A DNA stretch of 22,154 bases. Source: a virus. Its lineage: Duplodnaviria; Heunggongvirae; Uroviricota; Caudoviricetes. Position numbers and translations under genes: made by a program. The notes beneath the pieces were generated by a model. That model had not been told where the DNA came from. It saw only the letters and a program-made list of their open reading frames with translations, and ran no database searches. Location of the stretch: the IMG/VR virus record IMGVR_UViG_2540341091_000004. One strand, written 5' to 3'. This document shows positions 1,165 through 17,689 of the stretch, one piece after another (position 1 is the stretch's first letter; the number at the start of each line of letters is the position of its first letter).

Positions 1165-1391
1165 TTTCTTTCCTCTGTTATGCCATCACCCGCGCTCACC
1201 TGGACAGTATGCAGCGGAGACTGAAGCGCCGCAATGCAAGCTTGCCGTGTTGTGAGGTAAGGAGATTTTGGCTTGGTTGGATCTTTACGTGTTGCCTGTA
1301 GGCGGCCTGTTCGTATCCAGTTGGTGGCGGTTGGTCTGGATATCTTAAGAAAATGACAGGCCTCATCGAGTGTGAGGCTGTATGGCTCCAT
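1020..1391 (-). CDS. xis: Excisionase / AlpA-like helix-turn-helix protein
   Basis: Start [31 protein letters not shown] resembles AlpA/Xis HTH. Its ATG (1391-1389) overlaps the upstream stop by 1 nt (TAATG). The frame stays open to 1020, overlapping int by about 145 nt, so the true 3' end is uncertain. Confidence 0.6.
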
Positions 1392-1696: not shown

Positions 1697-2058
1697 TATG
1701 CTCCAGCCTCCGGTGCTTTTGGCATTACTGCCCAGTGAGTGATATTGACGTTTTCAAGGTCCCCGACCTGAAATGTCCACTGCCATTCTCCGGTTTCTTT
1801 TTGTCCCCAGGTGTACCAGAGAGAACGCCAGCCAATTAGCCAGCCTTCTCCTTTAGCATCGAATAACAAAACACTTTCATTTGCTGGTGGCAGTTCAGTT
1901 GACACTGGTATTACTTTGTTTTCCTGTGCTGCACATTTAGCTTCAAGCGCATCGAATTTACGCACCAGGTATTCAGCATCTGTTTCATTTACTTTCAGAT
2001 CTCGCGGTACACATCTCCCACGAAGAAACCCTTCCATTTCGAAAACATTCATGCGCAT
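1696..2058 (-). CDS. DUF551-like phage protein (120 aa; YfdS-like)
   Basis: Trp-rich C-terminus (GWLIGWRSLWYTWGQKETGEWQW) typical of DUF551 as I recall it; size and position match YfdS. Overlaps the upstream gene by 10 nt. Confidence 0.5.
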   Translation of the reverse strand: MRMNVFEMEGFLRGRCVPRDLKVNETDAEYLVRKFDALEAKCAAQENKVIPVSTELPPANESVLLFDAKGEGWLIGWRSLWYTWGQKETGEWQWTFQVGDLENVNITHWAVMPKAPEAGA

Positions 2059-2585
2059 TTGCGTAACTCCGATAACTCGTTAAAGCGTTCCATAAACATC
2101 CCGTAGGCATGGCCCGGTGCCAGTGGAATCACGTTGAACATCTCTGTTGCCGGGATACCTTCCAGTACAGGCCAGAAAGAGCCATCATCAAGCCCGAGAT
2201 CGCGGCGTTCGGTTGCCAGCATGATGAGATCGGCATATTTCACGGGCGTACTCATAACTGGGGGTAACCCGTATTTCTCACGGATTACGGCGTCTATTTT
2301 TTCTTCCATTTGTTTATAGTCAGGAAGAAGGCGTTTCAGTGGTGCGGGAATGTCCTGGCAATACGCTTCTGTTGCATCATGCATTAACGCTTCAAAAGCA
2401 AATTCCTGCGGCACCAGCTGGCTGCAAAGAACCGCATGTTGGGCGACGCTGTAGAAGTGCGAAAGATGACCGGCAAAGCGACAGATATTTGAAAGGGAAA
2501 CCGCGATATCGTTAATATCGATGTCGTCTTTATTTATCCTGTCATAATAAAAATGCTTCCCGGAAAAAGTTTTAATAAATGACAT
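2049..2585 (-). CDS. yfdR: HD-domain phosphohydrolase (YfdR-like, 178 aa)
   Basis: H...HD metal-binding motif (FAGHLSHFYSVAQHAV ... ALMHDATEAY). Start taken at ATG 2585 (MSFIKTF) with GGAG 6 nt upstream, rather than the ORF-track start at 2612. Symbol is from memory of CPS-53. Confidence 0.7.
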   Translation of the reverse strand: MSFIKTFSGKHFYYDRINKDDIDINDIAVSLSNICRFAGHLSHFYSVAQHAVLCSQLVPQEFAFEALMHDATEAYCQDIPAPLKRLLPDYKQMEEKIDAVIREKYGLPPVMSTPVKYADLIMLATERRDLGLDDGSFWPVLEGIPATEMFNVIPLAPGHAYGMFMERFNELSELRKCA

Positions 2586-2712
2586 TTTGTTCTCCACGTA
2601 TATGCGCTGCACCGCGCTGAATTCTGGTAAAAAGAATCCCTCACCATCCTGCGATTATTGAGTAAATTACGTTTCCATAAATGCCCCCGCAGGGGCATTT
2701 GCAGTAATGAAA

Positions 2713-3537
2713 TCAGGCGGTGAAAGTACCAATAAAGGTTTCTACTTTGCTGTCCTTGAATTTCTCAACAAGCAGATCACGAAATTCGTTAGCCATTTCT
2801 TCCTGCACCGCCTCCAGCTGAATAATGCGCAGAACCAGTACAGGACGATCGCCAGTGATAATACTGAGGCGTAATTTAAACGGACGTTCTTTCAGACCTT
2901 CAAACGGAACGCATTTAAATTCAAATGCCACTGGCATAATGTCTTTGGTCTTCGCTTCGACAGACTCCATCAGGGAGCGTTTGCCGCTGAAGTCATTATC
3001 TTCAAAATCAGCGGTCTGGTTTGCTTCAATCGTGATTTTACGGACAGCCGCAGCCGCTTTTGTTGCCTGAATGGCGTCACCATTAGCATCAAAGCCCACA
3101 AGGTAGTCGGCCCAGTCTTCAATCCATTCTGCCAGTGACTTCTGGGAGTTACGCTCGCCGTTAACAGACAACAGAGCAGAGAACGGTGCTGTCTTTTTCA
3201 GTTTGAGAGTGGCGGTGTTATCTGCGTGACCTGGTTCATCAATAGTACCCAGGTTAAGCACACTGACGGCACGCATATTATCGGCATCGATAAAGCAGCG
3301 GGTGCCTTCATCTGCAAGAACTTTAGAATAACGGGTAAAGTCATCGATGCTGGCAGTGGAAAGCGCACCACGGAAACGGAAGCGATTTAAATTAAATTTT
3401 TCCAGATCATGAATGCGGAAATTCTCAGGCAATGCCACAGCATCGGCACCAATCTTACTGATAATTTCATTAACACCCTGAGCAGAAATAAGGGCATGGA
3501 TTTGATTAATTGCGGTTGCGTCTAAGTTCTGAGACAT
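2713..3537 (-). CDS. yfdQ: DUF2303-family phage protein (YfdQ-like, 274 aa)
   Basis: Complete ORF, ATG 3537 with GAGGA RBS; length and position match YfdQ of CPS-53. Domain assignment is from memory, not a search. Confidence 0.6.
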
Positions 3538-3601
3538 AATAAGTCCTCACTATATAAAGATATTCAGTGATGAGATAAATAATCAGTTTATTAGAACGAT
3601 A

Positions 3602-3964
3602 TTAACGACCTGCTGCGCGGAGTTTTCCGTCAGGTTCACCGGCAAGAGTCAGTAATTGTCCCTGGTCTTCCTGCAGAATAGTCAGGCGACCACCGCGATT
3701 GACATACATCGGCGTTTCGGTGGTGTCTTCTTCGGAAATTTTCCCGCGGTTAGTTGGGCGAACATATGAGAGTTTGTGTTTGATTTTCACACGGTTCTCA
3801 TCAAACGGTTCGATTTCCAGATTGAGTGAGACCTTCCCTTTGGTTTTCGTGTTCATCACACCGGAAGCGACCTCACTGAGAACTGCGCCGATTTTGGTTT
3901 CAAATACGCCGCCGTCCAGCTCCCCGATAAATGCCTGCACATCAGTACTGCGTTCGCTAGCCAT
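3602..3964 (-). CDS. Hypothetical phage protein (120 aa; YfdP-like by size and synteny)
   Basis: True start is ATG 3964 with a GAGGAG RBS 7 nt upstream. The ORF-track start at 4087 is the lambda A start codon fused to 41 junk codons. Confidence 0.5.
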   Translation of the reverse strand: MASERSTDVQAFIGELDGGVFETKIGAVLSEVASGVMNTKTKGKVSLNLEIEPFDENRVKIKHKLSYVRPTNRGKISEEDTTETPMYVNRGGRLTILQEDQGQLLTLAGEPDGKLRAAGR

Positions 3965-4060
3965 TTTGCTGCTCCTCATCATATCGACCCTGCAAGGTCG
4001 GTTGGTTTCTCCACAAAACAGAGAAGAACACCTGCGGTGGCAGCCGCCCGGATGGATTGG

Positions 4061-4087
4061 GTTAACCTGACTGTTCGATATATTCAC
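4061..4087 (-). pseudogene. Terminase large subunit (lambda A) 5' remnant - start codon plus first 9 codons only
   Basis: Translation MNISNSQVN matches the lambda gpA N-terminus; homology to lambda stops immediately after GGTTAAC at about 4061. Confidence 0.7.
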
Positions 4088-4607
4088 TCAGCAACCCCGG
4101 TATCAGTTCATCCAGCGCGGCTGCTTTGTTCATGGCTTTGATGATATCCCGTTTCAGGAAATCAACATGTCGGTTTTCCAGTTCCGGAAAACGCCGCTGC
4201 ACCGACAGGGGGATCCCGTCGAGAATACTGGCAATTTCACCTGCGATCCGCGACAGCACGAAAGTACAGAATGCGGTTTCCACCACTTCAGCGGAGTCTC
4301 TGGCATTTTTCAGCTCCTGTGCGTCGGCCTGCGCACGCGTAAGTCGATGGCGTTCGTACTCAATAGTCCCTGGCTGGAGATCTGTCTCGCTGGCCTGCCG
4401 CAGTTCTTCAACTTCCCGGCGCAGCTTTTCGTTCTCAATTTCAGCATCCCTTTCGGCATACCATTTTATGACGGCGGCAGAGTCATAAAGCACCTCATTA
4501 CCCTTGCCACCGCCTCGCAGAACGGGCATTCCCTGTTCCTGCCAGTTCTGAATGGTACGGATACTCGCACCGAAAATGTCAGCCAGCTGCTTTTTGTTGA
4601 CTTCCAT
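4062..4607 (-). CDS. nu1: Terminase small subunit Nu1 (lambda-type TerS)
   Basis: 181-aa protein MEVNKKQLADIFGASIRTIQNWQEQGMPVLRGGGKGNEVLYDSAAVIKWYAERD... is essentially identical to lambda Nu1 as I recall it; complete ORF. Confidence 0.9.
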   Translation of the reverse strand: MEVNKKQLADIFGASIRTIQNWQEQGMPVLRGGGKGNEVLYDSAAVIKWYAERDAEIENEKLRREVEELRQASETDLQPGTIEYERHRLTRAQADAQELKNARDSAEVVETAFCTFVLSRIAGEIASILDGIPLSVQRRFPELENRHVDFLKRDIIKAMNKAAALDELIPGLLSEYIEQSG

Positions 4608-4830
4608 TGTTCATTCCACGGACAAAAACAGAGAAAGGAAACGACAGAGGCCAAAAAGCTCGCTTTCAGCACCTGTCGTTTCCTTTCTTTTCAGAGGGTA
4701 TTTTAAATAAAAACATTAAGTTATGACGAAGAAGAACGGAAACGCCTTAAACCGGAAAATTTTCATAAATAGCGAAAACCCGCGAGGTCGCCGCCCCGTA
4801 GCCTGTTGGATCGCCGGAAAGGACCCGAAA
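4608..4830 (-). other. cos site (cosB - cosN - cosQ); 12-nt cohesive-end sequence at 4785-4796
   Basis: Reverse complement of 4785-4796 is GGGCGGCGACCT. Minus-strand sequence from there to the Nu1 start matches the lambda left end, and 4797-4830 matches the lambda right end (...CGGCGATCCAACAGGCTACG). Confidence 0.85.
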
Positions 4831-4945
4831 AACGAGAATAATTATCACTTACAGCAAGAATCGAATCTGATCTATTATGGTGCTTGCTATTATGTGCCGG
4901 CACAAGTGCGTCGTTTACCGTCATTTCACACAGAGGCATCATCAA

Positions 4946-5197
4946 ATGAAAATCAGAAATATTCTCGCTATCTCCCTTGCAACATCATCCTTCAGTTGCC
5001 TGGCATTTAAATCCTCGCCCAATGTGCTACCAGGACCAACGAATCAACTAACTGCGGTAGAAAGTAAAATTATCGGACATTTTTATGCCCCACACAGTGC
5101 ATTACCCGGAACAACCATCACAGGGACATGTGACGCCTCCCCCGTCCCGGGATGCACCTGTCCGTTTTGTACTATGCTGCGTAGCCAAAACCGATAA
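4946..5197 (+). CDS. Small secreted protein (83 aa) with N-terminal signal peptide and Cys-containing C-terminus
   Basis: ATG 4946 preceded by AGAGG; MKIRNILAISLATSSFSCLA looks like a Sec signal peptide; mature part contains TGTCDASPVPGCTCPFC. No family recognised. Confidence 0.4.
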   Translation: MKIRNILAISLATSSFSCLAFKSSPNVLPGPTNQLTAVESKIIGHFYAPHSALPGTTITGTCDASPVPGCTCPFCTMLRSQNR

Positions 5198-5258
5198 CAT
5201 CCGCATTTACCTGGTATTCCATGATGAGTTCACGCAGCGACTGATAGAGGAAGGAAAG

Positions 5259-5438
5259 ATGGTTAGCAAAAGCAAGGCGCATTGCCGCCGCATGCTGCAG
5301 GCATTGCAACAGACGAGAGCAGGTATTTTTGACCAGTTGGAAAACTGCCAGCATACTTTGCCCGAGTATATCGCCATCTCATCGGAAACCAGTGCAACTC
5401 TTATTCATCGGGTTCCACTAGAGAAAAAGAAGAAATGA
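5259..5438 (+). CDS. Small hypothetical protein (59 aa)
   Basis: ATG 5259 with strong RBS AGGAAGGAAAG immediately upstream; followed by a hairpin at 5445-5469. No homology recognised. Confidence 0.35.
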   Translation: MVSKSKAHCRRMLQALQQTRAGIFDQLENCQHTLPEYIAISSETSATLIHRVPLEKKKK

Positions 5439-5444
5439 ACAGTG

Positions 5445-5470
5445 AGGCGTTGTGTGGCATACAACGCCTT
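5445..5470 (+). terminator. Stem-loop downstream of the 4946-5438 cassette (possible terminator)
   Basis: Perfect 9-bp stem AGGCGTTGT/ACAACGCCT with 7-nt loop; only a weak T tract follows. Confidence 0.3.
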
Positions 5471-5560
5471 CTTCCATCATTCCTCGTCAGCCATGACAAA
5501 AATATAACCGCTGGCTCTTTCATTTTTCTCCTGCTTCCAGCCCCTCTCTACCTGGAAGCA

Positions 5561-5887
5561 TCAGGGACGTGACGGCGTAAAGATAAATTGTCTCTTCACT
5601 CCCTGACAGGGACGATTCTTTTCAAATCGCCATTTCGCCATGGCCTTCACCACTTCATCACGAAACAAATTATGAGGCTCTGAGCGGAGAAAAACGATCC
5701 GTGTCACAGTCCCATCAGCACCAATATCGAACTTAACCTCAACCAGCCCCTTGATATAATTTGCTGCAGCATATTCCGGATATCGTGGATACACCGTCAC
5801 TAATTGCCGGGGCTCATCAGCTTTTTGCTGCGAGCATCCCACTGCTAGGACAGATAACAGAAAAAGTAGTAAAAGGCGTCTTTTCAT
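5561..5887 (-). CDS. Lipoprotein with TonB C-terminal-like domain (108 aa)
   Basis: MKRRLLLLFLLSVLAVGC is a lipobox signal. PRYPEYAAANYIKGLVEVKFDIGADGTVTRIVFLRSEPHNLFRDEVVKAMAKWRFE aligns by eye to E. coli TonB C-terminal domain (P.YP..A.A..IEG.V.VKFDV..DG.V....L.A.P.N.FE.EV.NAM.RWR.EP). AGGA RBS before ATG 5887. Confidence 0.6.
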   Translation of the reverse strand: MKRRLLLLFLLSVLAVGCSQQKADEPRQLVTVYPRYPEYAAANYIKGLVEVKFDIGADGTVTRIVFLRSEPHNLFRDEVVKAMAKWRFEKNRPCQGVKRQFIFTPSRP

Positions 5888-6367
5888 TTTTATTCCTACG
5901 GGTCTTATTCTGACAATATATCCTGTGTTCCAGACTGCCACATCACCACATCCTGTGCCATTATCTGACTCACATTACATACATCGCATCGGGATACAGT
6001 AGTAGCACTTTCTGTAATACAGCTTCCGGTTTCTTCCACCATCGCACCGGGATAAATCCGCGAATCATTAACGCGGTAAAAACCCGGTGTGCATCGTTTT
6101 TAATTATTCCCGCACACTCACGCAGAAGGAATTCCCCGTCGGGCTACGGTCATGGTTAATGCGGGAATACGGCGACGATACAGCGCAGCTAAAAGGGTAA
6201 TGGACGGATAGACCGGTTTATTTCATTCTACAGGATTCTGAGTGTCCCCAACTCCCTCCAATCGTCTGAGCTCACCTGTGTAGTTTTAATTTTCATCAAT
6301 CCATTTAACTATCGTTTAATTGTTGTCACATAGGATTCTGCCGTTTTTAACAATGCAGGATAATAAG

Positions 6368-6661
6368 ATGAAAAAAATGTTGTTTTCTGCCGCTCTGGCA
6401 ATGCTTATTACAGGATGTGCTCAACAGACGTTTACTGTTGGAAACAAACCGACAGCAGTAACACCAAAGGAAACCATCACCCATCATTTCTTCGTTTCGG
6501 GAATTGGGCAGAAGAAAACTGTCGATGCAGCAAAAATTTGTGGTGGTGCAGAAAATGTGGTTAAAACAGAAACCCAGCAAACATTCGTAAATGGATTGCT
6601 CGGTTTCATCACTTTTGGCATTTATACTCCGCTGGAAGCGCGGGTGTATTGCTCAAAATAA
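6368..6661 (+). CDS. bor: Bor lipoprotein (serum-resistance, Iss family)
   Basis: 97-aa protein MKKMLFSAALAMLITGCAQQTFTV...EARVYCSK, near-identical to lambda Bor as recalled; AGGA RBS. Confidence 0.9.
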   Translation: MKKMLFSAALAMLITGCAQQTFTVGNKPTAVTPKETITHHFFVSGIGQKKTVDAAKICGGAENVVKTETQQTFVNGLLGFITFGIYTPLEARVYCSK

Positions 6662-6692
6662 TTGCATGAGTTGCCCATCGATATGAGCAACT

Positions 6693-7154
6693 CTATCTGC
6701 ACTGCTCATTAATATACTTCTGGGTTCCTTCCAGTTGTTTTTGCATAGTGATCAGCCTCTCTCTGAGGGTGAAATAATCCCGTTCAGCGGTGTCTGCCAG
6801 TCGGGGGGAGGCTGCATTATCCACGCCGGAGGCGGTGGTGGCTTCACGCACTGACTGACAGACTGCTTTGATGTGCAACCGACGACGACCAGCGGCAACA
6901 TCATCACGCAGAGCATCATTTTCAGCTTTCGCATCAGCTAACTCCTTCGTGTATTTTGCATCGAGCGCAGCAACATCACGCTGACGCATCTGCATGTCAG
7001 TAATTGCCGCGTTCGCCAGCTTCAGTTCTCTGGCATTTTTGTCGCGCAGGGCTTTGTAGGCGATTGCGTTATCACGGTAATGATTAACAGCCCATGACAG
7101 GCAGACGATGATGCAGATAACCAGAGCATAAATAATCGCGGCGACTCTGCTCAC
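6693..7154 (-). CDS. Rz: Rz i-spanin (inner-membrane spanin)
   Basis: 153 aa, matches lambda Rz almost throughout (…[26 protein letters not shown]…QKYINEQCR). Starts at GTG 7154, overlapping the endolysin stop. Confidence 0.9.
6752..6934 (-). CDS. Rz1: Rz1 o-spanin (outer-membrane lipoprotein) embedded in Rz in the +1 frame
   Basis: 60-aa [60 protein letters not shown], lambda Rz1-like proline-rich lipoprotein. Confidence 0.85.
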
Positions 7155-7684
7155 TGATCTATCCCCCAACAGGCTAATGCGCTTTCCTGGTCACGACGAA
7201 TAACCTGTCCATAGCAGTTATTTGAACGTATGCGGCAATCGCGCCCACCATCTTTTATCCACCAGCGAATCGCCTCGCATGCACCTTTACGATCACCGGC
7301 ATTCAGCCGCTTATAAAACGTCGACGGGAAACACTTACCGGGGCCAATGTTATAGGGACAAAATGACGCGATACCCGCTTTCTGTGGTTCGGTCAGTGGC
7401 ACTTTAATATTGCGCTCCACCCATGCCAGCGCCTTATCCCGTTCAATGGCGTTAACCTGGTCGCATTTTTCCTTCGACAGTTTCATACCGGGAACAACGG
7501 GTTTTCCATCCACCACCGTGGCACCCCGACAGATGGTCCAGATGCCGGAACCATCGCGGTATGCCGTTGTGTGGTTACCTTCTTTTTCATCCAGAAACTG
7601 GTCGAGAATATCAGGCGCAGGCGCACCGACGGCAATCAGTGCCAGAACGGCAGCCGACAGGCCGTATCTGATTTTTGCGTTCAT
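7151..7684 (-). CDS. SAR endolysin (GH24 lysozyme, phage-21 type)
   Basis: T4-lysozyme-type catalytic triad spacing in [23 protein letters not shown] (E-9-D-6-T); N-terminal Gly/Ala-rich weakly hydrophobic segment [18 protein letters not shown] typical of a signal-anchor-release domain. Confidence 0.85.
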
Positions 7685-7789
7685 GGATATTTATCAGGAT
7701 TTATCGGTTTCTGAACCCTGGATATGTTTATCTGTCCCGGCCTGTTGAATCAGGCAAGGAATAGTTAAATACAATAGAGAGGATTGTTT

Positions 7790-8062
7790 ATGGACAATAG
7801 CACCATTTCTCTACAGGAGTTGCTCGACTGCATTTCCAGGCTTCGGGATGATGTAAATGCCCTTACTGTCGCATTTTCATATCTGGCATTCTCAATTCCC
7901 AAGGAACAAATGCAACCAACACTGGCATCGCTCCAGCTTGAATCAATCAATCCCAAATGGTCCCAGCAACAACAAAATTCTTTCAAGTGGCTGGCGGTAT
8001 TACTGGAGGAAAAATATGCTGGTGAAATTACCATTTCGGCGGAGTCTTCAGTGAACCAGTAA
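7790..8062 (+). CDS. Hypothetical 90-aa acidic protein, antisense within the lysis cassette
   Basis: ATG 7790 with GAGAGGA RBS 7 nt upstream; occupies the 343-bp gap between endolysin and the upstream gene and overlaps the 3' end of 8028-8372 convergently. No family recognised. Confidence 0.3.
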   Translation: MDNSTISLQELLDCISRLRDDVNALTVAFSYLAFSIPKEQMQPTLASLQLESINPKWSQQQQNSFKWLAVLLEEKYAGEITISAESSVNQ

Positions 8063-8372
8063 TTCTTCCCGGCAGTTTTCCTTTGTAGGTTATCCACACA
8101 CTCTGCGCCTCTAAAATTATGGGGCGCTTTTCCGGCGACTGCTCATCCCCTCCACATAACCCGGCAGCAACATCCAGGAAGACCTGTCTGATGCTCCTTC
8201 TGGCTGCTGCCTCATAAAACTCCAGCGCGGCACCTTCAACACGGTCCAGCGAGATGTCCAGGTCAAAAATTTCACCGTCAAAGCGTTCTTTGTCCTGTAA
8301 TGCTAAAGTTACCGTAACTTTATTCTCAAAATTGCGGATCCCTTTCACAATCATTTCATAGTTTTGGACCAT
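8028..8372 (-). CDS. Hypothetical protein between holin and endolysin (possibly DUF1327 / YdfR-like)
   Basis: 114-aa ORF, ATG 8372 with GGAG RBS, directly after the holin stop. Position matches ydfR in the Qin lysis cassette; family assignment is from memory only. Confidence 0.45.
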   Translation of the reverse strand: MVQNYEMIVKGIRNFENKVTVTLALQDKERFDGEIFDLDISLDRVEGAALEFYEAAARRSIRQVFLDVAAGLCGGDEQSPEKRPIILEAQSVWITYKGKLPGRITGSLKTPPKW

Positions 8373-8376
8373 TATA

Positions 8377-8592
8377 TTACTCTCCTCTCGCAGCCTTTCT
8401 TCTGTCTTCTCTGATTTTGAAGTACAGATTCGTCAGATAAGTCAGAAAGCCCAGAACCAGACTTCCCAGTACACCAATCGCAGCCCACTGAGACGGACTA
8501 ACCTGATCAAGCCATTGTAAAAACCAGTAGCCAGCACTGCCTGCGGAGGTGCCGTAGGCAATGCCTGTTGATATTTTTTCCATCTGATACAT
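8377..8592 (-). CDS. Pinholin (phage-21 S-type class II holin) with dual-start motif
   Basis: [71 protein letters not shown] matches S21 pinholin; Met1/Met4 give the antiholin/holin dual start. The ORF-track start at 8664 is an upstream extension. Confidence 0.85.
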
Positions 8593-8621
8593 ATCCCGCC
8601 CCAACAGACCTGTGCTACCGG

Positions 8622-8657
8622 AAAGAAAAAAGGCCATCAGCAAAACTCTGATGGCCT
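8622..8657 (-). terminator. Intrinsic terminator just upstream of the holin (tR'-like position)
   Basis: 10-bp stem AGGCCATCAG/CTGATGGCCT (8631-8640/8648-8657) with 7-nt loop, followed on the minus strand by TTTTTCTTTC. Confidence 0.45.
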
Positions 8658-8701
8658 GAATCACCTTTACCAGTCATGTATGAAAAAATACGCACAACCA
8701 A

Positions 8702-8731
8702 TTGACAATAATTATCATTTTCATTAAAAAT
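8702..8731 (+). promoter_or_regulatory. Candidate sigma70 promoter (TTGACA, 17 bp spacer, TAAAAA)
   Basis: Consensus -35 TTGACA at 8702-8707, A/T-rich -10-like hexamer at 8725-8730. The -10 is imperfect and the -35 is near-palindromic, so strand is uncertain. Confidence 0.25.
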
Positions 8732-8764
8732 ACCGCGTAACATTCTTATTTCATGAAGAACCAT

Positions 8765-8831
8765 ACCCGCCAGCAACCTGAGTAGCAAAAGCTGTTCATC
8801 CCCCATATTTTTGCTGGCGGGTTCTTTTTTC
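8765..8831 (+). terminator. Plus-strand intrinsic terminator (12-bp stem, long loop, T-run)
   Basis: ACCCGCCAGCAA (8765-8776) pairs perfectly with TTGCTGGCGGGT (8811-8822), followed by TCTTTTTTC. Confidence 0.45.
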
Positions 8832-9057
8832 TACTGCCCTCCTCCCCAGGAAAAGCATTTCATTCTTTTCTCATTAATCGTTACTGGAGAGAAGGCGGGA
8901 AAAAGCCAGCTCTTTGGCCCTAAATAACAGCATGGCTTCAGTCCATACAGAATCTGATTTTCCAGCTCACATAATAACCAGATGATGCAGTTGCAAAATC
9001 TGGCAACATCGGATTATTATGCGCCTGTGAAAATTTCTTCACGTTTTATTCCTTGCC

Positions 9058-9085
9058 GCCCGTGCCTCCCAGCGCGGGCTTTTTT
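9058..9085 (+). terminator. Plus-strand intrinsic terminator
   Basis: 8-bp stem GCCCGTGC/GCGCGGGC (one G-U pair), 6-nt loop, then TTTTTT. A second perfect hairpin TACCCCTC-cgga-GAGGGGTA follows at 9097-9116. Confidence 0.45.
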
Positions 9086-9404
9086 ATCCAAAAAATACCC
9101 CTCCGGAGAGGGGTATCATACAAGGGGATGACCATGATGCATGGTGCCGGGTGCCTCCCGGTGAGTCCGGCATCAGCATACGAACCCGCGATTATCCCAG
9201 AACTGACTGCTGATTCGCCCCGCCGCTTAGGGGGATTCACCATGCGTTTTTTTATTTACAAACTCTTCGCCAGACAAACAACCATTAACTGGCTGAATTG
9301 TGAGGTATTTCAATTTTTAGAAAACTGACCAACCTCCGCTTATACGCCGGGCATGGAGCGGATACAAAAAAGCCCCGCAAAAGCAGATCAGAAGGATTCG
9401 TTGT

Positions 9405-9443
9405 AAAAAAAAAGCTGTCAGATTATCGCGCTAATCTGACAGC
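9405..9443 (-). terminator. Strong minus-strand intrinsic terminator downstream of the methyltransferase gene
   Basis: Perfect 12-bp stem GCTGTCAGATTA/TAATCTGACAGC with 6-nt loop; on the minus strand it is followed by nine T. Confidence 0.6.
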
Positions 9444-9685
9444 TACAGCAGGTATCCAAAAACATGGGTGGAAACAATAAGTGAGTTAAGAAGACACGGT
9501 GTCGGATTTTTACCGATGAGCCGTTGGCGTGGTCAACCGTGACTCGCTTGTATCAACGATGAATTAATGAAGCCAATCCTTTGCAGGCTATGTACAACCC
9601 ACCACATCAGCCCTGCTGCATTGCAGGATACACTGTATCTGTAATCATTATACGGCACAGACATCCCACCAATAATTGAATTAAT

Positions 9686-10777
9686 TCACAAAATTGTATT
9701 TGCTGATAACATACTGATTTCCTGGATGGTCTGATTAAACCGCTCTGTCTCAAGCTCAACACCTAACGCCCGACGCCCCAGCGCCATTGCTGCTTTTATT
9801 GTGGAACCGGATCCCATAAAGAAATCAGCAACCAGATCGCCGGGTCGACTACTGGCATTGATTATTTGCCTGAGCATATCCGCCGGTTTCTCACACGGAT
9901 GTTTACCCGGGTAGAACTGAACGGGTTTATGCATCCAGACATCGGTATAAGGCACGGAGACTGATACGGAGAAATAGCGCCGGAGAGATTTAAACTCATC
10001 CAGCAATTCAGAATATTTGCGATTCAGTGAATCATAAGATGCCACCAACTGGTGGTGTGGTTGTTCCAGTTGTTGTTCCTGAAACTTCTCTGCCGCTATA
10101 CGGGAAAACAGTGCCTGTAACTTCCGGTAGTCAGCCTCATTCGGCAACTGCCACTGACTGGCACCAAACCAGTGGGAAACCATATTTTTCTTACCTGTGG
10201 CTTCGGCAATTTGTTTTGCCGTTATACCCAGTTCGGCACGAGCATCCCTGAAATACGATATCAGCGGTGCCATTATGTGCTGTTTGAGTTCCCTTTCTTT
10301 TGCCGCATAGCCGTCACTTTTGCCGCGATATGGCCCCTGGTAATGTTCAGCAAACAGAACGCGCTCTGTGGCAGGAAAATATGCGCGCAGACTTTCTTTA
10401 TTACACCCATTCCAACGTCCGGACGGCTTCGCCCAGATGATATGGTTAAGCACGTTGAAACGTTCACGCATCATGATCTCAATATCAGATGCCAGGCGAT
10501 GCCCACAGAACAGGTAAAGGCTTCCGGCTGGTTTCAGTACCCGCCAGAACTGGGCCAGACAGTGGTCCAGCCACTTCAGGTAATCTTCGTCCCCTTTCCA
10601 CTGATTGTCCCAGCCGTTGGGCTTCACTTTGAAGTACGGCGGATCGGTAACAATCAGATCAATGGAGTTATCAGGCAGGGACTGAATAAAATGCAGGCAA
10701 TCAGCGTTGATTAAATCAACACTGTTTATTTTTACAGTATTTTCATGGATCAGTAAGCGTAACTCTGGTAGGCTCAC
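9686..10777 (-). CDS. Orphan DNA methyltransferase, beta class (N6-adenine or N4-cytosine)
   Basis: Motif IV DPPY (IVTDPPYFKV) near the N-terminus and motif I FxGxG (FFMGSGST) near the C-terminus; architecture like YhdJ-type enzymes. GTG start at 10777 with weak RBS. No adjacent restriction endonuclease recognised. Confidence 0.85.
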   Translation of the reverse strand: MSLPELRLLIHENTVKINSVDLINADCLHFIQSLPDNSIDLIVTDPPYFKVKPNGWDNQWKGDEDYLKWLDHCLAQFWRVLKPAGSLYLFCGHRLASDIEIMMRERFNVLNHIIWAKPSGRWNGCNKESLRAYFPATERVLFAEHYQGPYRGKSDGYAAKERELKQHIMAPLISYFRDARAELGITAKQIAEATGKKNMVSHWFGASQWQLPNEADYRKLQALFSRIAAEKFQEQQLEQPHHQLVASYDSLNRKYSELLDEFKSLRRYFSVSVSVPYTDVWMHKPVQFYPGKHPCEKPADMLRQIINASSRPGDLVADFFMGSGSTIKAAMALGRRALGVELETERFNQTIQEISMLSANTIL

Positions 10778-10896
10778 TCTGCTTTTGCGCTAAAGCAGTG
10801 GGCCGTGGTTCGCTTGTGACAAGTAAGCATGAGCGAATGGCTGGCAGGTGCTACCAACACCCACCAGCCGCCCATTTTCACAGCAGGAAACCGCCA

Positions 10897-11100
10897 TTAC
10901 TGGCAGCGTCTGAATTTATTCCCGTACCCGCCGTTATCCTTCGCCAGACCCGCCAGAACTAACTGAGTCAGTATTAACTGGCACCGGGCTTCGCTTACTC
11001 CGGTAGTTCTCGTCATCATGCGTGGCGTTACCCACTTGTCAGCAGGTAAGAAATGAAGGACTGCGGCGGCGGTTTCTGTCATATCTTGCTGTTTTAGCAT
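10897..11100 (-). CDS. Small basic protein (67-75 aa), possible winged-helix DNA-binding protein
   Basis: ORF 10897-11124; start more likely ATG 11100 (AAGGG upstream) than 11124. TPRMMTRTTGVSEARCQLILTQLVLAGL resembles an HTH; no family recognised. Confidence 0.35.
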   Translation of the reverse strand: MLKQQDMTETAAAVLHFLPADKWVTPRMMTRTTGVSEARCQLILTQLVLAGLAKDNGGYGNKFRRCQ

Positions 11101-11419
11101 GTCTTTTTCCCTTCTGGTTAACATGACATACCAATAACTCTTGTCTAAAAAGCCAGCAAGATAAAAAGTCAGTATTCACGACCACCAGCGTGTTTACTGT
11201 GCTGCACCAAGTTTACAGGTACAAAAAAACCGCTCAGCGGCGGGTTTAAGTTGTGTGGCGAAGTAACCACTCTTAACACAGTAATCTAGAAAATGCGGAC
11301 CGCGTTAGTGATTTTTATCTGTTTTTCCATTATTTTTTTGCCACACAGCTTAAAACGAAAAATAAAGCAGGCGTTGCCAAACCTCACGGTGACAGTTGGC
11401 TTAGAATGAGGACATATTT

Positions 11420-12439
11420 TTGGATAAGTTTGATGAGATTCATGTAGACATTGAATCTGAGCAGCAAGCCTTCGATTTGCTTGAAAGCTATCTTGATGGT
11501 TATGGTTTACCTGACAGTTTAAGTTTCAACGGATGGCCAAACCTTACCATCAGATTAACCGGTGAAAAATTCAACAGATCGCTAACACCTTCAGTTATGA
11601 AGGGATTTGTTGAAATGCAAGCTCAAATCAACAAATCATATGCCCTTGCCAAGTACGGTGTCCCTGACGTCCGCAAACTGACCAAAGAAGAACTTGATGC
11701 CCTAGAAATAGAAGTTACGGTAGAACAGGGTTCTTCAATAGTAGAAATCAACATTGATGGCTTTTTAACCAAACTCACACAGGAACTTGTTGGTAAAATG
11801 AACGCAACTGAGATCATGTTTACTGTTCTCGGCGCAGCAGTCATCTGGGGCGGAGTAACAGTATTTAAACGGTTCTTGGACAACCGTAAAGATATTCGCC
11901 TTGCAGAAATTGCTAAGGATGGAGAGAAAGAACATCTCCGGACTATGCAGATCATGAGCGAGCAAGAAACTAAACGCCTGCGGGTTATTTCAGAAATGAT
12001 TGCGGAAAAACCACTTCTCGATAACATGGACCGTATGTCGTATGACGCTAAAACCCAAATGGTCAAATCCTTTGTGCGTTCAGATAACGCTCAAATTGAT
12101 GGCGTTACTATTGATTCTGAAATGGCGAAAGAGTTGGTTACGAATGCTCGTAGACGTTCATCAGAAATGAGGATTGATGGTATTTACCGAATTGAAGAAG
12201 TCAATAATACTGACCCAGAGAGTTTCAAAGTTAAGGTCCGACGCGTAGATACCGACCAACGTCTAACCTGCGTAGTTCAGGATGTTTTCCTTGATGAATC
12301 CGGAAACAAAGAAGCATTGCAGCGAGCTGAGTGGGAAAGAAAGCCTGTACATTTGAGCATTAACGCAAAACACGTCGATGGTGACATTAAGTCAGCAGTA
12401 ATTCTCTATGTTCGAGATGTGGAACAAAAGCCCGAGTAA
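11420..12439 (+). CDS. Membrane-anchored protein of unknown function (339 aa, single predicted TM helix); moron at the Q-lysis locus
   Basis: Only long plus-strand ORF in a minus-strand block; TTG start at 11420 with GAGGA 7 nt upstream; lower G+C than flanks by eye; hydrophobic segment IMFTVLGAAVIWGGVTVF at about aa 132-150; no recognisable catalytic motif. Confidence 0.6.
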   Translation: MDKFDEIHVDIESEQQAFDLLESYLDGYGLPDSLSFNGWPNLTIRLTGEKFNRSLTPSVMKGFVEMQAQINKSYALAKYGVPDVRKLTKEELDALEIEVTVEQGSSIVEINIDGFLTKLTQELVGKMNATEIMFTVLGAAVIWGGVTVFKRFLDNRKDIRLAEIAKDGEKEHLRTMQIMSEQETKRLRVISEMIAEKPLLDNMDRMSYDAKTQMVKSFVRSDNAQIDGVTIDSEMAKELVTNARRRSSEMRIDGIYRIEEVNNTDPESFKVKVRRVDTDQRLTCVVQDVFLDESGNKEALQRAEWERKPVHLSINAKHVDGDIKSAVILYVRDVEQKPE

Positions 12440-12448
12440 TCGGGCTTC
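12429..12448. terminator. Hairpin between convergent genes (339-aa ORF and Q)
   Basis: 8-bp stem AAGCCCGA/TCGGGCTT with GTAA loop, spanning the stop of the plus-strand ORF; A/T-rich flanks on both sides. Confidence 0.35.
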
Positions 12449-12453
12449 AATAA

Positions 12454-12831
12454 TCAATCTTTAATTTCGGGGTCCATCTCTAGACTAATTTCCAGCATCG
12501 ATAGGCAGCCATCAATAAACCCCTCAGCCATCTGTATCTCAATGCGTATTAGTTTCTCATCCTTTTTACGAGCCTTGGCGAGCTTTCTTTTAGAGATACC
12601 GTATAGGTAATGGGCAACAAGAAGCGAATGTTCGTCCGGCCTTTTTTGCCTTAGACGAGCAAGACAACCTTCAATAATTAATGCATCACTATCTGAACAT
12701 GCCTGACGTGTTTTGCTTGTATAGGGAAGAAGCCCTTTAAACCCAGCAGCTATAGGAGAATAGTCTACTCCTGAACTATCACTCGCCGCCCATGCTCCCC
12801 AACGATCCAGAACCATTTGAATATCACGCAT
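12454..12831 (-). CDS. Late-gene antiterminator Q (QuuD / phage-82-type Q family)
   Basis: MRDIQMVLDRWGAWAASDSSGVDYSPIAAGFKGLLP... closely follows the DLP12 QuuD pattern as I recall it (MRDIQMVLERWGAWAA...). Start taken at ATG 12831. Confidence 0.8.
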   Translation of the reverse strand: MRDIQMVLDRWGAWAASDSSGVDYSPIAAGFKGLLPYTSKTRQACSDSDALIIEGCLARLRQKRPDEHSLLVAHYLYGISKRKLAKARKKDEKLIRIEIQMAEGFIDGCLSMLEISLEMDPEIKD

Positions 12832-12848
12832 CAACTTTCTCCACAAAA

Positions 12849-13844
12849 TCAGGCCAGCACGCCAATTGCCAGCGCACGATCGATAAAACGAAATATCAGC
12901 TCCAGCTGGGAGCCATACTTCTCTTCAAATGCCACGGTATCCGCATGCAGCTCGTCGTGATGCTTTCTGCACAAAGGCAACACAAAGAGGTCATGCGCTT
13001 TTGTACCCATTCCCCCCTGACCGTGGCCTATCAGGTGGTGGGGATCATCAGCAGGCTTTCCACAACATGCACACGGCTGTGTCTTAACCCAGCGCGTGTA
13101 CTTTTCATTAACCCAGCGGCGACGTTTTGGGCGTAACATAAAAGACTCCGGCGACTCCGGATCCACTTTCAGCGCCAGCACCTTTTTCGCCTTATCCTGG
13201 ATGATGCTGGTGGCAGGAACCGAAGGCACAAGGTCACTTTCCCGGGTGACAGACGGCACAACAGGCTTCGGTAATCTCAGTGCCTTACGGGCTGCACTTT
13301 CCGGTAAGGCATCCGCCAGGTCATTACGAATCAGCCACCAGCACAGTTCCGGCATTGTCACAACGTGACTGTCATCAAAACCGAGATCCCGACGCACAAC
13401 AGACAACACCCAGCGGGCACAGTTATCCGTTGCCATTGATTCCAGCCGTTCCGTGAACTGATCGCGCAGCTGGTTATCGCAGTGCCAGCACAGACGGATT
13501 GCGCCCGGCGCGTGTCGCATTGTTGTCATGTTCTCGCTGTGCCAGTCGGAATGAGGCCACTGGCAGCCTTTTTCACGAAGTAACCAGCTTTCAAGACATT
13601 CCACGCCACCAGCACGACGGATCACTGCCTCATTGCGGAACACGGCCCGAACGACAGGATCATCCGCCAGCGGTTGTGATGCCGCCGGAACGGCACCACT
13701 GGCAAAAGATGAATAACGTTCCGGCTCAGGCTCCAGCAGGACACGCCCCTGCATAAACAGGGGCATCAGCTCTGAACCAGGTCTGAACAATACGATCCCC
13801 ATACGCGGGGCAATTTCAGGGGTCAGTAGTGCTCTCACAGTCAC
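12849..13844 (-). CDS. DUF968-like protein with HNH-like Cys/His motif (YdfU-like)
   Basis: C-terminal CACCGKPADDPHHLIGHGQGGMGTKAHDLFVLPLCRKHHDELH; GTG start at 13844 one nt after the upstream stop. Confidence 0.65.
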   Translation of the reverse strand: MTVRALLTPEIAPRMGIVLFRPGSELMPLFMQGRVLLEPEPERYSSFASGAVPAASQPLADDPVVRAVFRNEAVIRRAGGVECLESWLLREKGCQWPHSDWHSENMTTMRHAPGAIRLCWHCDNQLRDQFTERLESMATDNCARWVLSVVRRDLGFDDSHVVTMPELCWWLIRNDLADALPESAARKALRLPKPVVPSVTRESDLVPSVPATSIIQDKAKKVLALKVDPESPESFMLRPKRRRWVNEKYTRWVKTQPCACCGKPADDPHHLIGHGQGGMGTKAHDLFVLPLCRKHHDELHADTVAFEEKYGSQLELIFRFIDRALAIGVLA

Positions 13845-13845
13845 C

Positions 13846-14643
13846 TCAATGAACGGTATCGAGCAGCTTTAACAGCTCAGGGAATCGGGATTCGAAGAAA
13901 TGCGGCTGCGTCTCGCGCGGATTTGCAGGACTGGTGATGTTCTTGCCGAACATGCAGCCTTTCGCTGTCAGCGACCAGAATTTTTTGATGTTGTTAATCG
14001 CGGTACGGCTGTATCGTTCGCGCTGCTCGACGATCCCCAGCTTCACCATCTGGTGATATGCCTGATTAGCTGTCAGGCGGATACCATACTGCTTCAGCAG
14101 TGCACTCAGTGACAGTGTCGGGCGACTTGAGCCATCGTGTGCATCAGCAGGAGCATCAATGGCATAGCGCGGTGCCAGATTCGGTAAGCCAACAGCCTCC
14201 TGGAGTTTCTGACAGGCACCAAGCACTGAAGAGTTAGACAGGTTTAACTCCCGGCGCATAAAGTCCAGCAGGATCACGCCAGCCTGCATCTTGTCAGCAG
14301 CCTGTCCGGATAATTTTTCCGGTGCGCTGGTTACCATATCGAAAGTACGGATCACCTTCAGATGGAATGACGGGCTGATCCACATTGCATAGGCATACAC
14401 CAGTTCTTTGCAGACATACGTCCCCTGGTTATTTCCGCCACGAATAACGTTAACTGGCTCTATATTGACCGAGTTGCAAATCTGCAACTCGCTTATTAAA
14501 CGTTCAGTTTGCTCATTGCGGAGCCAGAATGCAGGCTTATGCTTATCCAGAGAACCGGCAGCCCTGTGCAGATCGTTCAGGCTGTAACGACCATAAGCAT
14601 CACGACGAACTTCAATACCATCAATGACCATCAGATTATTCAT
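13846..14643 (-). CDS. KilA-N domain protein (phage antirepressor-like)
   Basis: N-terminal MNNLMVIDGIEVRRDAYGRYSLNDLHRAAG...KPAFWLRNEQTERLISEL looks like KilA-N; strong AGGAG RBS before ATG 14643. Confidence 0.7.
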   Translation of the reverse strand: MNNLMVIDGIEVRRDAYGRYSLNDLHRAAGSLDKHKPAFWLRNEQTERLISELQICNSVNIEPVNVIRGGNNQGTYVCKELVYAYAMWISPSFHLKVIRTFDMVTSAPEKLSGQAADKMQAGVILLDFMRRELNLSNSSVLGACQKLQEAVGLPNLAPRYAIDAPADAHDGSSRPTLSLSALLKQYGIRLTANQAYHQMVKLGIVEQRERYSRTAINNIKKFWSLTAKGCMFGKNITSPANPRETQPHFFESRFPELLKLLDTVH

Positions 14644-14662
14644 ACTTCGTTTCTCCTCTTAA

Positions 14663-15052
14663 TCAGGCGGCTGCACCCGCCGGTTTCTCGTACTTACTGA
14701 TAGTGATCTCGACCTTCCCTTCCGGGATAACCGGTCCCCACTCCACCAGCATTCTTTTCACCTGACTGTCGTCTTCCCACACACCCGCATGGGTCAGGGC
14801 GTCAAACAGCGCCTTGTTATAGTTGTCCAGATCGCGGATCCGGTTATCCGGAGGAAACAACACGATCTCCACTGAAGCAGGTGCCGACGTTGGTTTCGGC
14901 AGACGACGTAACTGCTCAACTATTGCTGCGCACGCCGCGCTCTGGAATTTGCGCCCCGCTGCGCTTATCAGACTCTTACCAGCAAACGCCCCTTTGTTGG
15001 GGTGTCGCCTGTACGTGTTCACGCTGGGAGGGAAAGGCAAGATCAGCTTCAT
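14663..15052 (-). CDS. rusA: RusA-family Holliday-junction resolvase
   Basis: LPFPPSVNTYRR...RDLDNYNKALFDALTHAGVWEDDSQV matches the RusA signature (LPxPPSxNxYxR ... RDLDNxxKAxxDALTxAGxWxDDxQV). Confidence 0.8.
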   Translation of the reverse strand: MKLILPFPPSVNTYRRHPNKGAFAGKSLISAAGRKFQSAACAAIVEQLRRLPKPTSAPASVEIVLFPPDNRIRDLDNYNKALFDALTHAGVWEDDSQVKRMLVEWGPVIPEGKVEITISKYEKPAGAAA

Positions 15053-15375
15053 ACTTTCAGGCCCCTCTCATGTAACCAGTGGGCTGCACGCAGCCTGGCG
15101 TTTTCCTCACCGGCAAGCAGTGCGCGGATAATCCCGACCGCCTCGCTGTCGTCGTCCTTCACCGCGGTATGAAGAGTTATCCCCCGGGCCACGCCACGCT
15201 TTATCGTGATGACGCTTTTTTTCTCCAGTGCGCGAAGATGCTCCACCGCTGCATTCACCGAACGGTATCCCAGCATGGTTGCCACCTCCTGATTGGTTGG
15301 CGGAAAGCCACGTTCTTGCTGGTAAGAAATCAGCATATCCAGCACCTGCTGCTGGCATTGAGTTAACGTCGTCAT
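15049..15375 (-). CDS. LexA DNA-binding-domain-only protein (108 aa; no S24 peptidase domain)
   Basis: LTQCQQQVLDMLISYQQERGFPPTNQEVATMLGYRSVNAAVEHLRALEKKSVITIKRGVARGITL aligns by eye with the LexA N-terminus ([65 protein letters not shown]); the protein ends about 40 aa later. Confidence 0.7.
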   Translation of the reverse strand: MTTLTQCQQQVLDMLISYQQERGFPPTNQEVATMLGYRSVNAAVEHLRALEKKSVITIKRGVARGITLHTAVKDDDSEAVGIIRALLAGEENARLRAAHWLHERGLKV

Positions 15376-16025
15376 GCCGCCATCTCCCTGACCAGTTTTT
15401 CCGCCTGCTGGCGAACCTGCGCCAGAAAGGCCTCACCACATGCCTCAAGTTCATCGCGCCCGATGTAGCTGATTGCCGGTCCCTTCCAGGTCTTGTCGAA
15501 AACAGCAATAGCACCAGCGAAGAAAGCGCCTGTCGGCACCTGCTTCTCGTCCTTCGGGATAAACCAGGCTGGCAGTTCAAAACCAATACGCCCGCGAATA
15601 AAAGCAATATGGTCTGCATCTTCCGGCCACCACACTTCGCTGGTGGCAGCTTTGATCAGGAAAACATAGCGCCCGCCTTTATCACGCATGGCACTGGCAT
15701 GCTTCATGATGTAACGCATGCCGGTGATGTATTGCCCCTCATGCTGACTGGCGCGGCTGTACGGGGGATTACCAAAGGCAGCACCTTTAAGCTCCGCAAG
15801 ACGTTCTGACCAGTCATGCGCCAGCGCGTTGTCTTCCGCAGTGTAATACGCGGCGCATTTGGCGTTATCACCATCAGTAAACAGATCCAGAACAAACGGG
15901 CCAAACAGGGTGTTAATTCCCCAGAAAATGTTGTCCGGCGTGCGCCACTGATCGCCCACTTCCTTCAGTTCATGGGCTGGTTTGTTCCGCAGCTCCACCA
16001 GCGCCTGGCAATATTTATTACTCAT
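15372..16025 (-). CDS. Phage Dam-like N6-adenine DNA methyltransferase
   Basis: Catalytic NPPY motif (FGNPPYSRA); start ATG 16025 overlaps the upstream stop (TAATG). Position matches the yfdM methylase in CPS-53. Confidence 0.8.
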   Translation of the reverse strand: MSNKYCQALVELRNKPAHELKEVGDQWRTPDNIFWGINTLFGPFVLDLFTDGDNAKCAAYYTAEDNALAHDWSERLAELKGAAFGNPPYSRASQHEGQYITGMRYIMKHASAMRDKGGRYVFLIKAATSEVWWPEDADHIAFIRGRIGFELPAWFIPKDEKQVPTGAFFAGAIAVFDKTWKGPAISYIGRDELEACGEAFLAQVRQQAEKLVREMAA

Positions 16026-16513
16026 TAAGCCCCCACGTAATTCCCTGACAGATACCACTCTTCACCCGATGCAGCGCGCTTGCTGCTTTTCCGTAAACAC
16101 CGCTCACGACGCGCAAGAAAATTGTTTCGCTCTTGCTGGGAGTGGCTTTCACGGAATGCCGCCATCCACACCGTTGCAGCACGACGGTATAAGCCCCTGG
16201 ACTCCAGTTCTTCCGCCTGGCGGGTCAGGCACAAAATCACCCGGGGATCGTTAGTGCCGACATAGAAATTGCGCACAGGTCTGGATTCACGAACTGGTTG
16301 CGGTTCCGGCTCCTGCGGTATCTCAGTCAGCCGCGGGAAATGTCTGCGTGTATCCCCTTCACAACGGTGAGCCACACGCCCACTCTGACGTAACTTGCTT
16401 GCTGACTGCAGAACGCGCTGTCGTGAGTAACCTGCAAAAGCATCCGCAATGTCTCCGGAAGTACACCCCGGATGGGCTTCAATGAATTTCTGAACGTCAT
16501 TCAAAAGACTCAT
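16025..16513 (-). CDS. PerC-like putative regulator (YfdN-like)
   Basis: LESRGLYRRAATVWMAAF resembles the PerC-family core; ORF-track length of 164 aa matches YfdN. From memory only. Confidence 0.4.
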   Translation of the reverse strand: MSLLNDVQKFIEAHPGCTSGDIADAFAGYSRQRVLQSASKLRQSGRVAHRCEGDTRRHFPRLTEIPQEPEPQPVRESRPVRNFYVGTNDPRVILCLTRQAEELESRGLYRRAATVWMAAFRESHSQQERNNFLARRERCLRKSSKRAASGEEWYLSGNYVGA

Positions 16514-16515
16514 GA

Positions 16516-17289
16516 TCACCCCCTGAATCCTGCCGGGATCTGGCTGTAGTCCACGTTGTCGTAACTGGCTTTGAAGTACGGGTCTTCGCGTTTTTCGGTG
16601 TACGTGCTGACGGACGGCGATAAGCGCAGGGAAAGCTCATCCCATTTTTCCCGCAGCTTCGACGGGCTGAGCACGTTACGGCACCAGAACGGATCGCGAC
16701 TGACGCGGCTGTACATCTCGCAGATTTGTTTATGAGTACGACCATCCTGCACACACATCAGGCGAATTTCGTTTGCCCAGGCTGTCCAGTTCGGTTCTTT
16801 GGGACGAACCACCTCGCCGTCACATTCGGCGGCATGCTCGTACAGGGCGATGATTTTTTTCCAGAGCCACTGTGCGCAGGTCAAATCATCCTGCGTCCCC
16901 CACTGGCGCTTTTTAGGGCTGAATACAACCGCATCAGGATGGCGAGTTAAAAAATCCTGTTCAGCCGTCTGCGTGTCCGGTTGCGAAGAGTCCGGACGAG
17001 AAGGTTTTTTATCTGACGGATCATGTTTTGATTTTACTGACGGATCCCCGCCAGATTCTGACGGGTGAAAACCCGCTTTTTTGCCAGATTTCGACGCATC
17101 AAATTTTGACGGGTCAGATTTTGATGCGTCAGATTTTGACGGGTCAGAATCTGACAGTTGAGAAAATGCCGCTGCCTGAAGCTTCGCAACGTTAAGCTGA
17201 TAAACATTCGACGCATTGCGGTTACCCTGGCGACGCGCCTTACGCGTTAACCAGCCTTCTGCTTCCAGCCGTGCGATACCCGCTGGCAT
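16516..17289 (-). CDS. Replication initiator (O-like), 5' end replaced at a rearrangement junction; possibly non-functional
   Basis: Contains an in-gene iteron array encoding SDSDPSKSDASKSDPSKFDASKSG and a conserved-looking C-terminal domain. The first codons (MPAGI) are read from lom-derived sequence, so the native N-terminus and promoter are gone. Confidence 0.5.
   Translation of the reverse strand: MPAGIARLEAEGWLTRKARRQGNRNASNVYQLNVAKLQAAAFSQLSDSDPSKSDASKSDPSKFDASKSGKKAGFHPSESGGDPSVKSKHDPSDKKPSRPDSSQPDTQTAEQDFLTRHPDAVVFSPKKRQWGTQDDLTCAQWLWKKIIALYEHAAECDGEVVRPKEPNWTAWANEIRLMCVQDGRTHKQICEMYSRVSRDPFWCRNVLSPSKLREKWDELSLRLSPSVSTYTEKREDPYFKASYDNVDYSQIPAGFRG
17012..17160. repeat. Iteron-like direct repeats (about 8 copies of tYTGACGGRTCA) - candidate replication origin
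   Basis: Copies at about 17012, 17037, 17057, 17089, 17105, 17120, 17135 and 17149; the last four are spaced about 15 bp apart; each is a short palindrome (TGAC...GTCA). Confidence 0.55.
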
Positions 17290-17678: not shown

Positions 17679-17689
17679 GTGGGGTGAAT

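Follow-up and report, generated by a model that had tools for sequence, protein, structure and literature searches.

The argU tRNA gene of Escherichia coli is the attachment site of DLP12, the cryptic prophage of K-12, and DLP12 is the closest known system to the element described here. De Paepe et al. showed that cos and the nu1, R and Rz genes of DLP12 function once recombined into lambda, that the recombinants are viable, and that half of the junctions adjoin cos (PMC3945230). In O157 Sakai, the defective prophage Sp4 turned up in packaged form, and the terminase responsible was most likely that of Sp14, which has an identical cos (PMC2669165). Passive prophages in the chromosome are also packaged by helper phages, which start at one cos and stop at the next one downstream (PMC4669245). 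Gram-negative PICIs are equipped with a private cosB, with an Rpp protein that lacks the TerL-binding C-terminus and with regulation and replication modules of their own, and they block their helper (PMC9026076, PMC6739421). A cos of the lambda type is characterized by a 12-nt 5' cohesive end, a conserved left half and CG at both nicks, and the role and conservation of cosQ have likewise been described; initiation of packaging requires cosN and cosB, and termination requires a downstream cosQ and cosN (PMC4669245).

The stretch of DNA analyzed here (the window) is the 22,154-nt IMG/VR record IMGVR_UViG_2540341091_000004, which sequence comparison identified as E. coli chromosome at the argU tRNA gene. 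It matches GPEC1054 at 99.96%, an extra IS2 in GPEC1054 aside. This IS2 (GPEC1054 L001 24262-25490) interrupts a yfdS-like gene and is absent from the window, where its site would be at ~1832-1837, so that the window belongs to a different member of this clone. The outer flanks of the element are normal and K-12-like: argU–fimZ–sfm–folD lie at one end and ompT–envY–ybcH–nfrA at the other, which confines the inversion described below to the interior of the prophage. A large chromosomal inversion between two prophages was also considered and was ruled out by these normal neighbors on both sides. When attR was searched for inside the prophage body it was not found; it was located only beyond ompT, as a 47-bp direct repeat of the 3' part of argU lying between envY and ompT (GPEC1054 L129 18481-18527). 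This position places ompT within the prophage-derived element, as in K-12 DLP12. From att to att the element measures ~27.7 kb, to which the IS2 adds in GPEC1054 (~29.0 kb).

The intD gene is intact (387 aa, PF00589) and its DNA is 99.4% identical to K-12 intD over 1259 nt. The excisionase-like HTH gene is truncated, the O-like, replication-initiator-like gene lacks its N-terminus, and the immunity (repressor/cro) region is gone; the RefSeq annotation of the identical element in GPEC1054 lists no repressor and no primase or replicase. The early-left genes of the element are CPS-53-like (yfdP–T).

With integration at argU, intD, an attR beyond ompT, and structural and immunity genes missing, the element has the make-up of a cryptic lambdoid prophage of the DLP12 site. 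It shares with DLP12 the argU attL site, the attR beyond ompT, a TerL stub and the loss of the head genes, and the cos–Nu1 regions of the two are 97.9% identical. However, the deletion in DLP12 is an independent one, in which about 280 nt of the terminase large subunit gene A (aaaD') follow cos–nohD in the normal orientation and are joined to tfaD, whereas in the window the break falls at the Nu1 stop codon, the partner is DNA upstream of yfdP, and the late block is inverted with cos toward argU.

The ancestor type of the element, as judged by sequence comparison, is the prophage that occupies argU in IHE3034, APEC O18 and PMV-1. These prophages share the site and the gene order with the window element, and are 96–98% identical to it over the shared segments and 99.9% over cos–Nu1. 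Unlike the window element, they keep the immunity region, the full O-like gene and the genes from A through lom, and their late block is in the normal orientation. The IHE3034 prophage is lambda-like and apparently complete, and its gene order matches that of the window element. Its left part runs int, truncated HTH gene, yfdT to yfdP, ParA-family gene, XRE repressor, cro-like gene and ymfL; the middle part runs O-like HTH gene, yfdN, LexA-like gene, RusA, KilA-N, DUF968 and Q; and the late part runs methyltransferase, holin, lysozyme, Rz, iss, TonB-like gene, cos, Nu1, A, W, B and onward to J, lom and stf. Compared with IHE3034, the window is made up of three collinear pieces i.e. 501–4064 forward, 4061–17282 reversed, and 17273 onward forward. 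Absent from it are positions 3566–8262 of the IHE3034 locus (~4.7 kb), which hold the immunity region and the 5' part of the O-like gene, and positions 20771–39323 (18.5 kb), which extend from A codon ~10 to lom codon 83. The features of the rearrangement are:

4061..17282, no strand: inverted block, from BLAST orientation against IHE3034, 14EC001 and K-12, with annotation from GPEC1054
4061..4064, no strand: junction J1, a GTTA microhomology between DNA upstream of yfdP and the inverted Nu1–A boundary, from three-way comparison with IHE3034
16516–17277, minus strand: truncated O-like gene
17273..17278, no strand: junction J2, a 6-nt microhomology (GCGATA) between the truncated O-like gene and the truncated lom
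17275–17625, plus strand: truncated lom, keeping Lom residues 84–200 only

The first half of the inverted block holds A', Nu1, cos, a gene with a TonB_C domain, iss/bor, Rz, R, S and the methyltransferase gene; the second half holds Q, DUF968, KilA-N, RusA, yfdN and the truncated O-like gene. Junction J1 overlaps the Nu1 stop codon (4062–4064). The late region of the 14EC001 prophage is 99.95% identical to window positions 4061–10533, and there it runs on through Nu1-A-W-B to J, lom and stf.

Repeated lambdoid prophage DNA often causes misassembly, and the inversion and its junctions could in principle have been created in this way. We give virtually no credence to such an artefact, as the junction between Nu1 and yfdP is present in 8 independently sequenced RefSeq assemblies of 'complete genome' level, and J1 and J2 both lie in unique sequence with microhomology, not in repeats. 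These 8 carriers were found among 5426 complete genomes, cos–Nu1 is 100% identical in all 8, and the carriers with a recorded host come from poultry. From the sequences compared, this distribution looks like the product of one recent clonal event.

The element very probably arose by deletion–inversion–deletion from a complete IHE3034-type prophage, cos and Nu1 having survived through accident and recency rather than through selection. In the mechanism that we propose, one complex illegitimate event (a replication template switch or break-joining) would have removed the immunity region together with the 5' part of the replication-initiator-like gene (about 4.7 kb), removed the DNA from A codon ~10 through lom codon 83 (about 18.5 kb), and inverted the 13-kb block between them. 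One of the breakpoints would have landed on the Nu1 stop codon, leaving cos and Nu1 intact. We infer a single event solely from the two microhomology junctions, and sequential events are also possible. The sequence-only reading had held that the element keeps exactly what packaging needs. We do not share this view: because the breakpoint at the Nu1 stop codon lies in a microhomology, the apparently exact retention of cos and Nu1 reflects accident and not design, the boundary being a junction of one rearrangement, and because a helper supplies its own Nu1 the resident copy is not needed.

We compared cos and the terminase genes of the window with those of lambda. The features concerned, in the order in which they lie from cosQ to A, are:

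4820..4826, minus strand: cosQ (GGGTCCT), the packaging-termination subsite, identical to the lambda right end and at the lambda spacing
4780..4801, minus strand: cosN, the nicking site, whose extent we take to be 22 bp, with the cohesive end and both CG pairs as in lambda
4785–4796, minus strand: the 12-nt cohesive end GGGCGGCGACCT, an exact match to lambda, with G1 at 4796
4632..4749, minus strand: cosB, identical to lambda except for the loss of lambda G138
about 4731–4746: R3, a Nu1-binding repeat of cosB with a CGTTTCC core
between R3 and R2: the IHF I1 region, within cosB
about 4672–4687, inverted: R2, a Nu1-binding repeat of cosB with a CGTTTCC core
4632–4647: R1, a Nu1-binding repeat of cosB with a CGTTTCC core
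4062..4607, minus strand: Nu1, the terminase small subunit gene, nohD-type, complete, 181 aa
4061..4087, minus strand: remnant of the terminase large subunit gene A, a GTG start and 8 codons

The repeats of cosB were positioned by their CGTTTCC cores and by the published location of R3 (at about bp 48–65; PMC9026076). In the alignment, bp 1–737 of lambda (NC_001416) correspond to the minus strand of the window from 4796 to 4061, with 6 substitutions and one 1-bp deletion (~99% identity). The cohesive end, cosQ, cosB and full-length Nu1 are therefore near-identical to those of lambda, as stated in the sequence-only reading, whose coordinates and description are accurate. The earlier expectation that cosN nicking positions and cosB sites would be free of mutations also held: the CG pairs at both nicks, with their flanks ACG|…|CGC, are the same as in lambda, lambda 1–137 is unchanged in the window, and so are R3, R2 and R1 with their cores. 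The lost lambda G138 sits in the spacer between R2 and R1 only. It is also missing from phages PhiR68_2 and Kati and from 41 of the 41 IMG/VR cos loci with a matching flanking pattern, so this deletion is the form usually found in nature.

To the left of the nick there are three substitutions with respect to lambda, i.e. T48486C (4813), G48492A (4807) and T48498C (4801). The first of these is the majority allele among cos sites, and the last, at the outermost position of cosN, is the sole change in cosN; by inspection it would make this outermost base rotationally symmetric with its partner. A degenerate-pattern scan of IMG/VR gave the allele frequencies at 4813/4807/4801 for 122 sites on viral contigs: C/G/T at 104, the lambda-type T/G/T at 15, and the C/A/C of the window at 2. 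The search pattern itself required cosQ, which accounts for the invariance of cosQ across the matched phage and IMG/VR sites. No 28-mer covering the rare bases at 4801 and 4807 was found in any deposited phage record by megablast with a 61-nt query, a result that is partly an effect of word size. The C/A/C allele, or a variant differing from it by 1 base, does occur ahead of a complete A on one viral contig and in about 40 genomes; 14EC001, one of the carriers with a full A, has a prophage that is itself IS-disrupted. Everything expected of a lambda-type cos is present in the window, i.e. the cohesive end with CG at the nicks, cosQ, and cosB as R3-I1-R2-R1 beside cosN, followed by terS. No subsite shows damage, and this cos is probably cleavable, if perhaps not at full activity given the rare bases at 4801 and 4807.

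Nu1 is identical to lambda Nu1 at 179/181 positions over all 181 residues, the differences being A75T and L132I. It matches Pfam PF07471 with E = 3.9e-101 over model positions 1–164 of 164, including the N-terminal wHTH and the C-terminal TerL-binding region. Beyond Nu1, homology of A to lambda ends at 4061 after 9 codons, where the lambda alignment stops at lambda 737, in agreement with the earlier count of surviving codons. We used tblastn with Nu1, A and 17 head, tail and Lom proteins of a related prophage as queries against the window, and only Nu1 (100%) and Lom residues 84–200 gave matches. A, W, B, C, D, E, FI, FII, Z, U, G, H, M, L, K, I and J had no match in the window, which confirms the reported absence of TerL, head and tail-shaft genes for a query set that omitted tail-tube V (split by IS1 in that relative) and T. 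The window thus lacks the TerL, portal and capsid genes of a functional lambda terminase and packaging module. As a side observation, the A stub reads in frame into yfdP by way of a 32-codon linker, and the resulting ORF has 161 codons (3602–4087, minus strand); the translation-initiation region of A may drive expression of this chimeric YfdP.

Some other genes of the element are of interest:

5561–5941, minus strand: TonB_C-domain gene (PF03544), 126 aa, between iss and cos, annotated in RefSeq as 'TonB family protein'
6367–6660, plus strand: iss (increased serum survival), Pfam Lambda_Bor, in the bor position about 1.6 kb from cos
17684–21292, plus strand: the side tail fibre gene stf, 1202 aa, which survives intact

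The iss gene is a virulence-associated moron between stretches that are homologous to common lambdoid phages. The sequence-only reading had passed over stf. RefSeq annotates an S74 endopeptidase (intramolecular chaperone) domain in stf, and beyond stf there are tail-fibre-assembly fragments and then, just outside the window, a pin-type recombinase gene. An ORF of 339 aa (11420-12439, plus strand) has no Pfam match and lies in a patch of low GC content (about 42%, compared with about 50% in the adjoining DNA). The ORF follows Q immediately downstream and on the opposite strand, a position that toxin genes occupy in Stx phages, and it is missing from IHE3034 at the matching position. This ORF may be a moron or a defence gene.

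Since TerL is absent, the cos of the window cannot package anything alone. The sequence-only reading had suggested that a co-resident cos-type helper could mobilize the element or adjacent DNA, i.e. that upon induction of a lambda-type helper the remnant or the neighboring chromosome would be packaged from this cos and transferred. Part of this suggestion stands: a cos-compatible helper terminase could act on the window cos in trans, as cos appears complete and its cosB is of lambda specificity, and there are precedents in the published packaging of defective prophages in trans (PMC2669165) and of passive prophages from cos to cos by helpers (PMC4669245). Each of the 8 carriers of the junction has 1–2 more places resembling cos–Nu1, which are possible helpers; intD is intact and both att repeats are present. 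The case of O157 Sakai is similar in that a defective lambdoid prophage without a working terminase has a cos matching that of a co-resident phage (PMC2669165), a helper being only possible for the window. However, Sp4 is near full length, amplified and excised, whereas the remnant in the window is about 27.7 kb and has no replication or immunity functions.

Mobilization itself is unsupported, and we consider it very unlikely. Packaging by lambda is limited to roughly 75–105% of the genome length, and a second cos in the same orientation is needed at about 38–51 kb. The second cos that was to be looked for elsewhere in the genome did not turn up in the surroundings: a search of GPEC1054 with a 21-mer, allowing up to 4–5 mismatches, gave no other cosN within 65.3 kb upstream and 64.7 kb downstream. 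With no other cosN-like site within these distances, neither initiation nor termination at the window cos would yield a molecule with cos ends. The length from att to att (27.7–29.0 kb) and that of a dimer (about 55–58 kb) are not packageable sizes; the 27.7-kb form is about 57% of lambda and its dimer about 114%, both outside the packaging limits. Concatemers are not expected either, because the excisionase-like and O-like genes are truncated and the immunity region has been lost. The hallmarks of satellites, i.e. Rpp, a private cosB, a primase or replicase, and genes for capsid-size remodelling, are all absent.

Gram-negative cos PICIs e.g. EcCICFT073 do resemble the window in having a lambda-like cosQ and cosN followed by a gene for a winged-HTH DNA-recognition protein, in being chromosomal, and in needing the TerL and capsids of a helper. 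In contrast to them, the window has a cosB identical to that of lambda and a full-length Nu1 instead of the shortened Rpp, and it has no regulation or replication modules of its own. The comparison with cos-type satellites that had been drawn for this locus therefore fails, as cosB and TerS are those of lambda itself.

A further possibility is that the orphan Nu1 and cos have been kept for a selected function, either as a terminase decoy or for TerS titration against lambdoid phages, or as an intermediate on the way to the cos–rpp modules of PICIs. These modules are laid out like cos–terS, and the winged-HTH domain of Rpp resembles that of TerS (PMC9026076). Orphan cos–Nu1 blocks also recur independently, as nohD in K-12 and in other genomes. 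Lambda-type cos–Nu1 is present in 4452 of the 5426 complete E. coli genomes, at 8607 places, and among these genomes there are other orphan copies that abut J-like or tail-fibre genes. Of the cos loci on viral contigs with enough downstream sequence, about a quarter lack the standard Nu1–A junction, a count that includes divergent Nu1 alleles. Another orphan cos–Nu1 remnant is presumably nohA of the Qin prophage of K-12. The repeated survival of cos–Nu1 in independent remnants (DLP12, the window and, presumably, Qin) could hint at selection.

For the window, we regard a selected function as extremely unlikely. Its Nu1 and cos match, at 100% identity, those of prophages in which A and the head genes are retained (the Nu1 of the related 14EC001 prophage, which keeps head genes, is one example), and this identity leaves no time for a signature of selection to have formed. 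The breakpoint is explained by microhomology. Upstream of Nu1 a scan for consensus promoters gave no more sites than shuffled sequence, and although the Q gene is intact (12454–12834), the normal route to Q expression has been deleted. Moreover, the resident Nu1 shares lambda specificity, and would supplement a lambda-type phage rather than block it. The element in the window is ordinary prophage wreckage of an already documented kind, and not a helper-mobilized satellite.

What the surviving cos might do at the locus can be outlined as follows. A terminase of lambda specificity from a co-resident or infecting phage should bind cosB, nick cosN and translocate in the direction of Nu1. As a result of the inversion, translocation would head toward yfdP, int, argU, fimZ, sfm, folD and purEK. 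Without a downstream cosQ–cosN, translocation could not terminate, and no transducing particle would be formed. The realistic outcome would be a double-strand break made by terminase, stimulating homologous recombination with the incoming phage, for which Nu1 and the lysis genes, lying on either side of the break, would serve as homology arms. In this way incoming lambdoid phages could acquire iss, the TonB_C-domain gene or the Nu1/cos alleles, a kind of rescue that has been shown for K-12 DLP12 (PMC3945230). A search of the available papers on terminase lethality via chromosomal cos sites turned up nothing relevant.

It is also conceivable, but in our view very unlikely, that orphan cos–TerS blocks persist because they serve in recombination or as decoys (for exchange of cargo e.g. 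iss, or, at this locus, one-sided packaging of argU–fim–folD–pur) or as precursors of the cos–rpp modules of PICIs. If this were true, cutting of chromosomal cos sites by helper terminases would drive the exchange of cos-proximal cargo such as iss with incoming phages.

The importance of the remnant in itself is small. The very probable derivation from an IHE3034-type prophage makes it a clean example of the one-step decay of a complete lambda-like prophage, in which cos and the TerS gene are left without visible damage, and programs that search for prophages and satellites should not take cos and terS without terL as a signature of a satellite. Recombinational pick-up of iss by passing phages is a plausible route for the spread of iss in avian-pathogenic E. 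coli.
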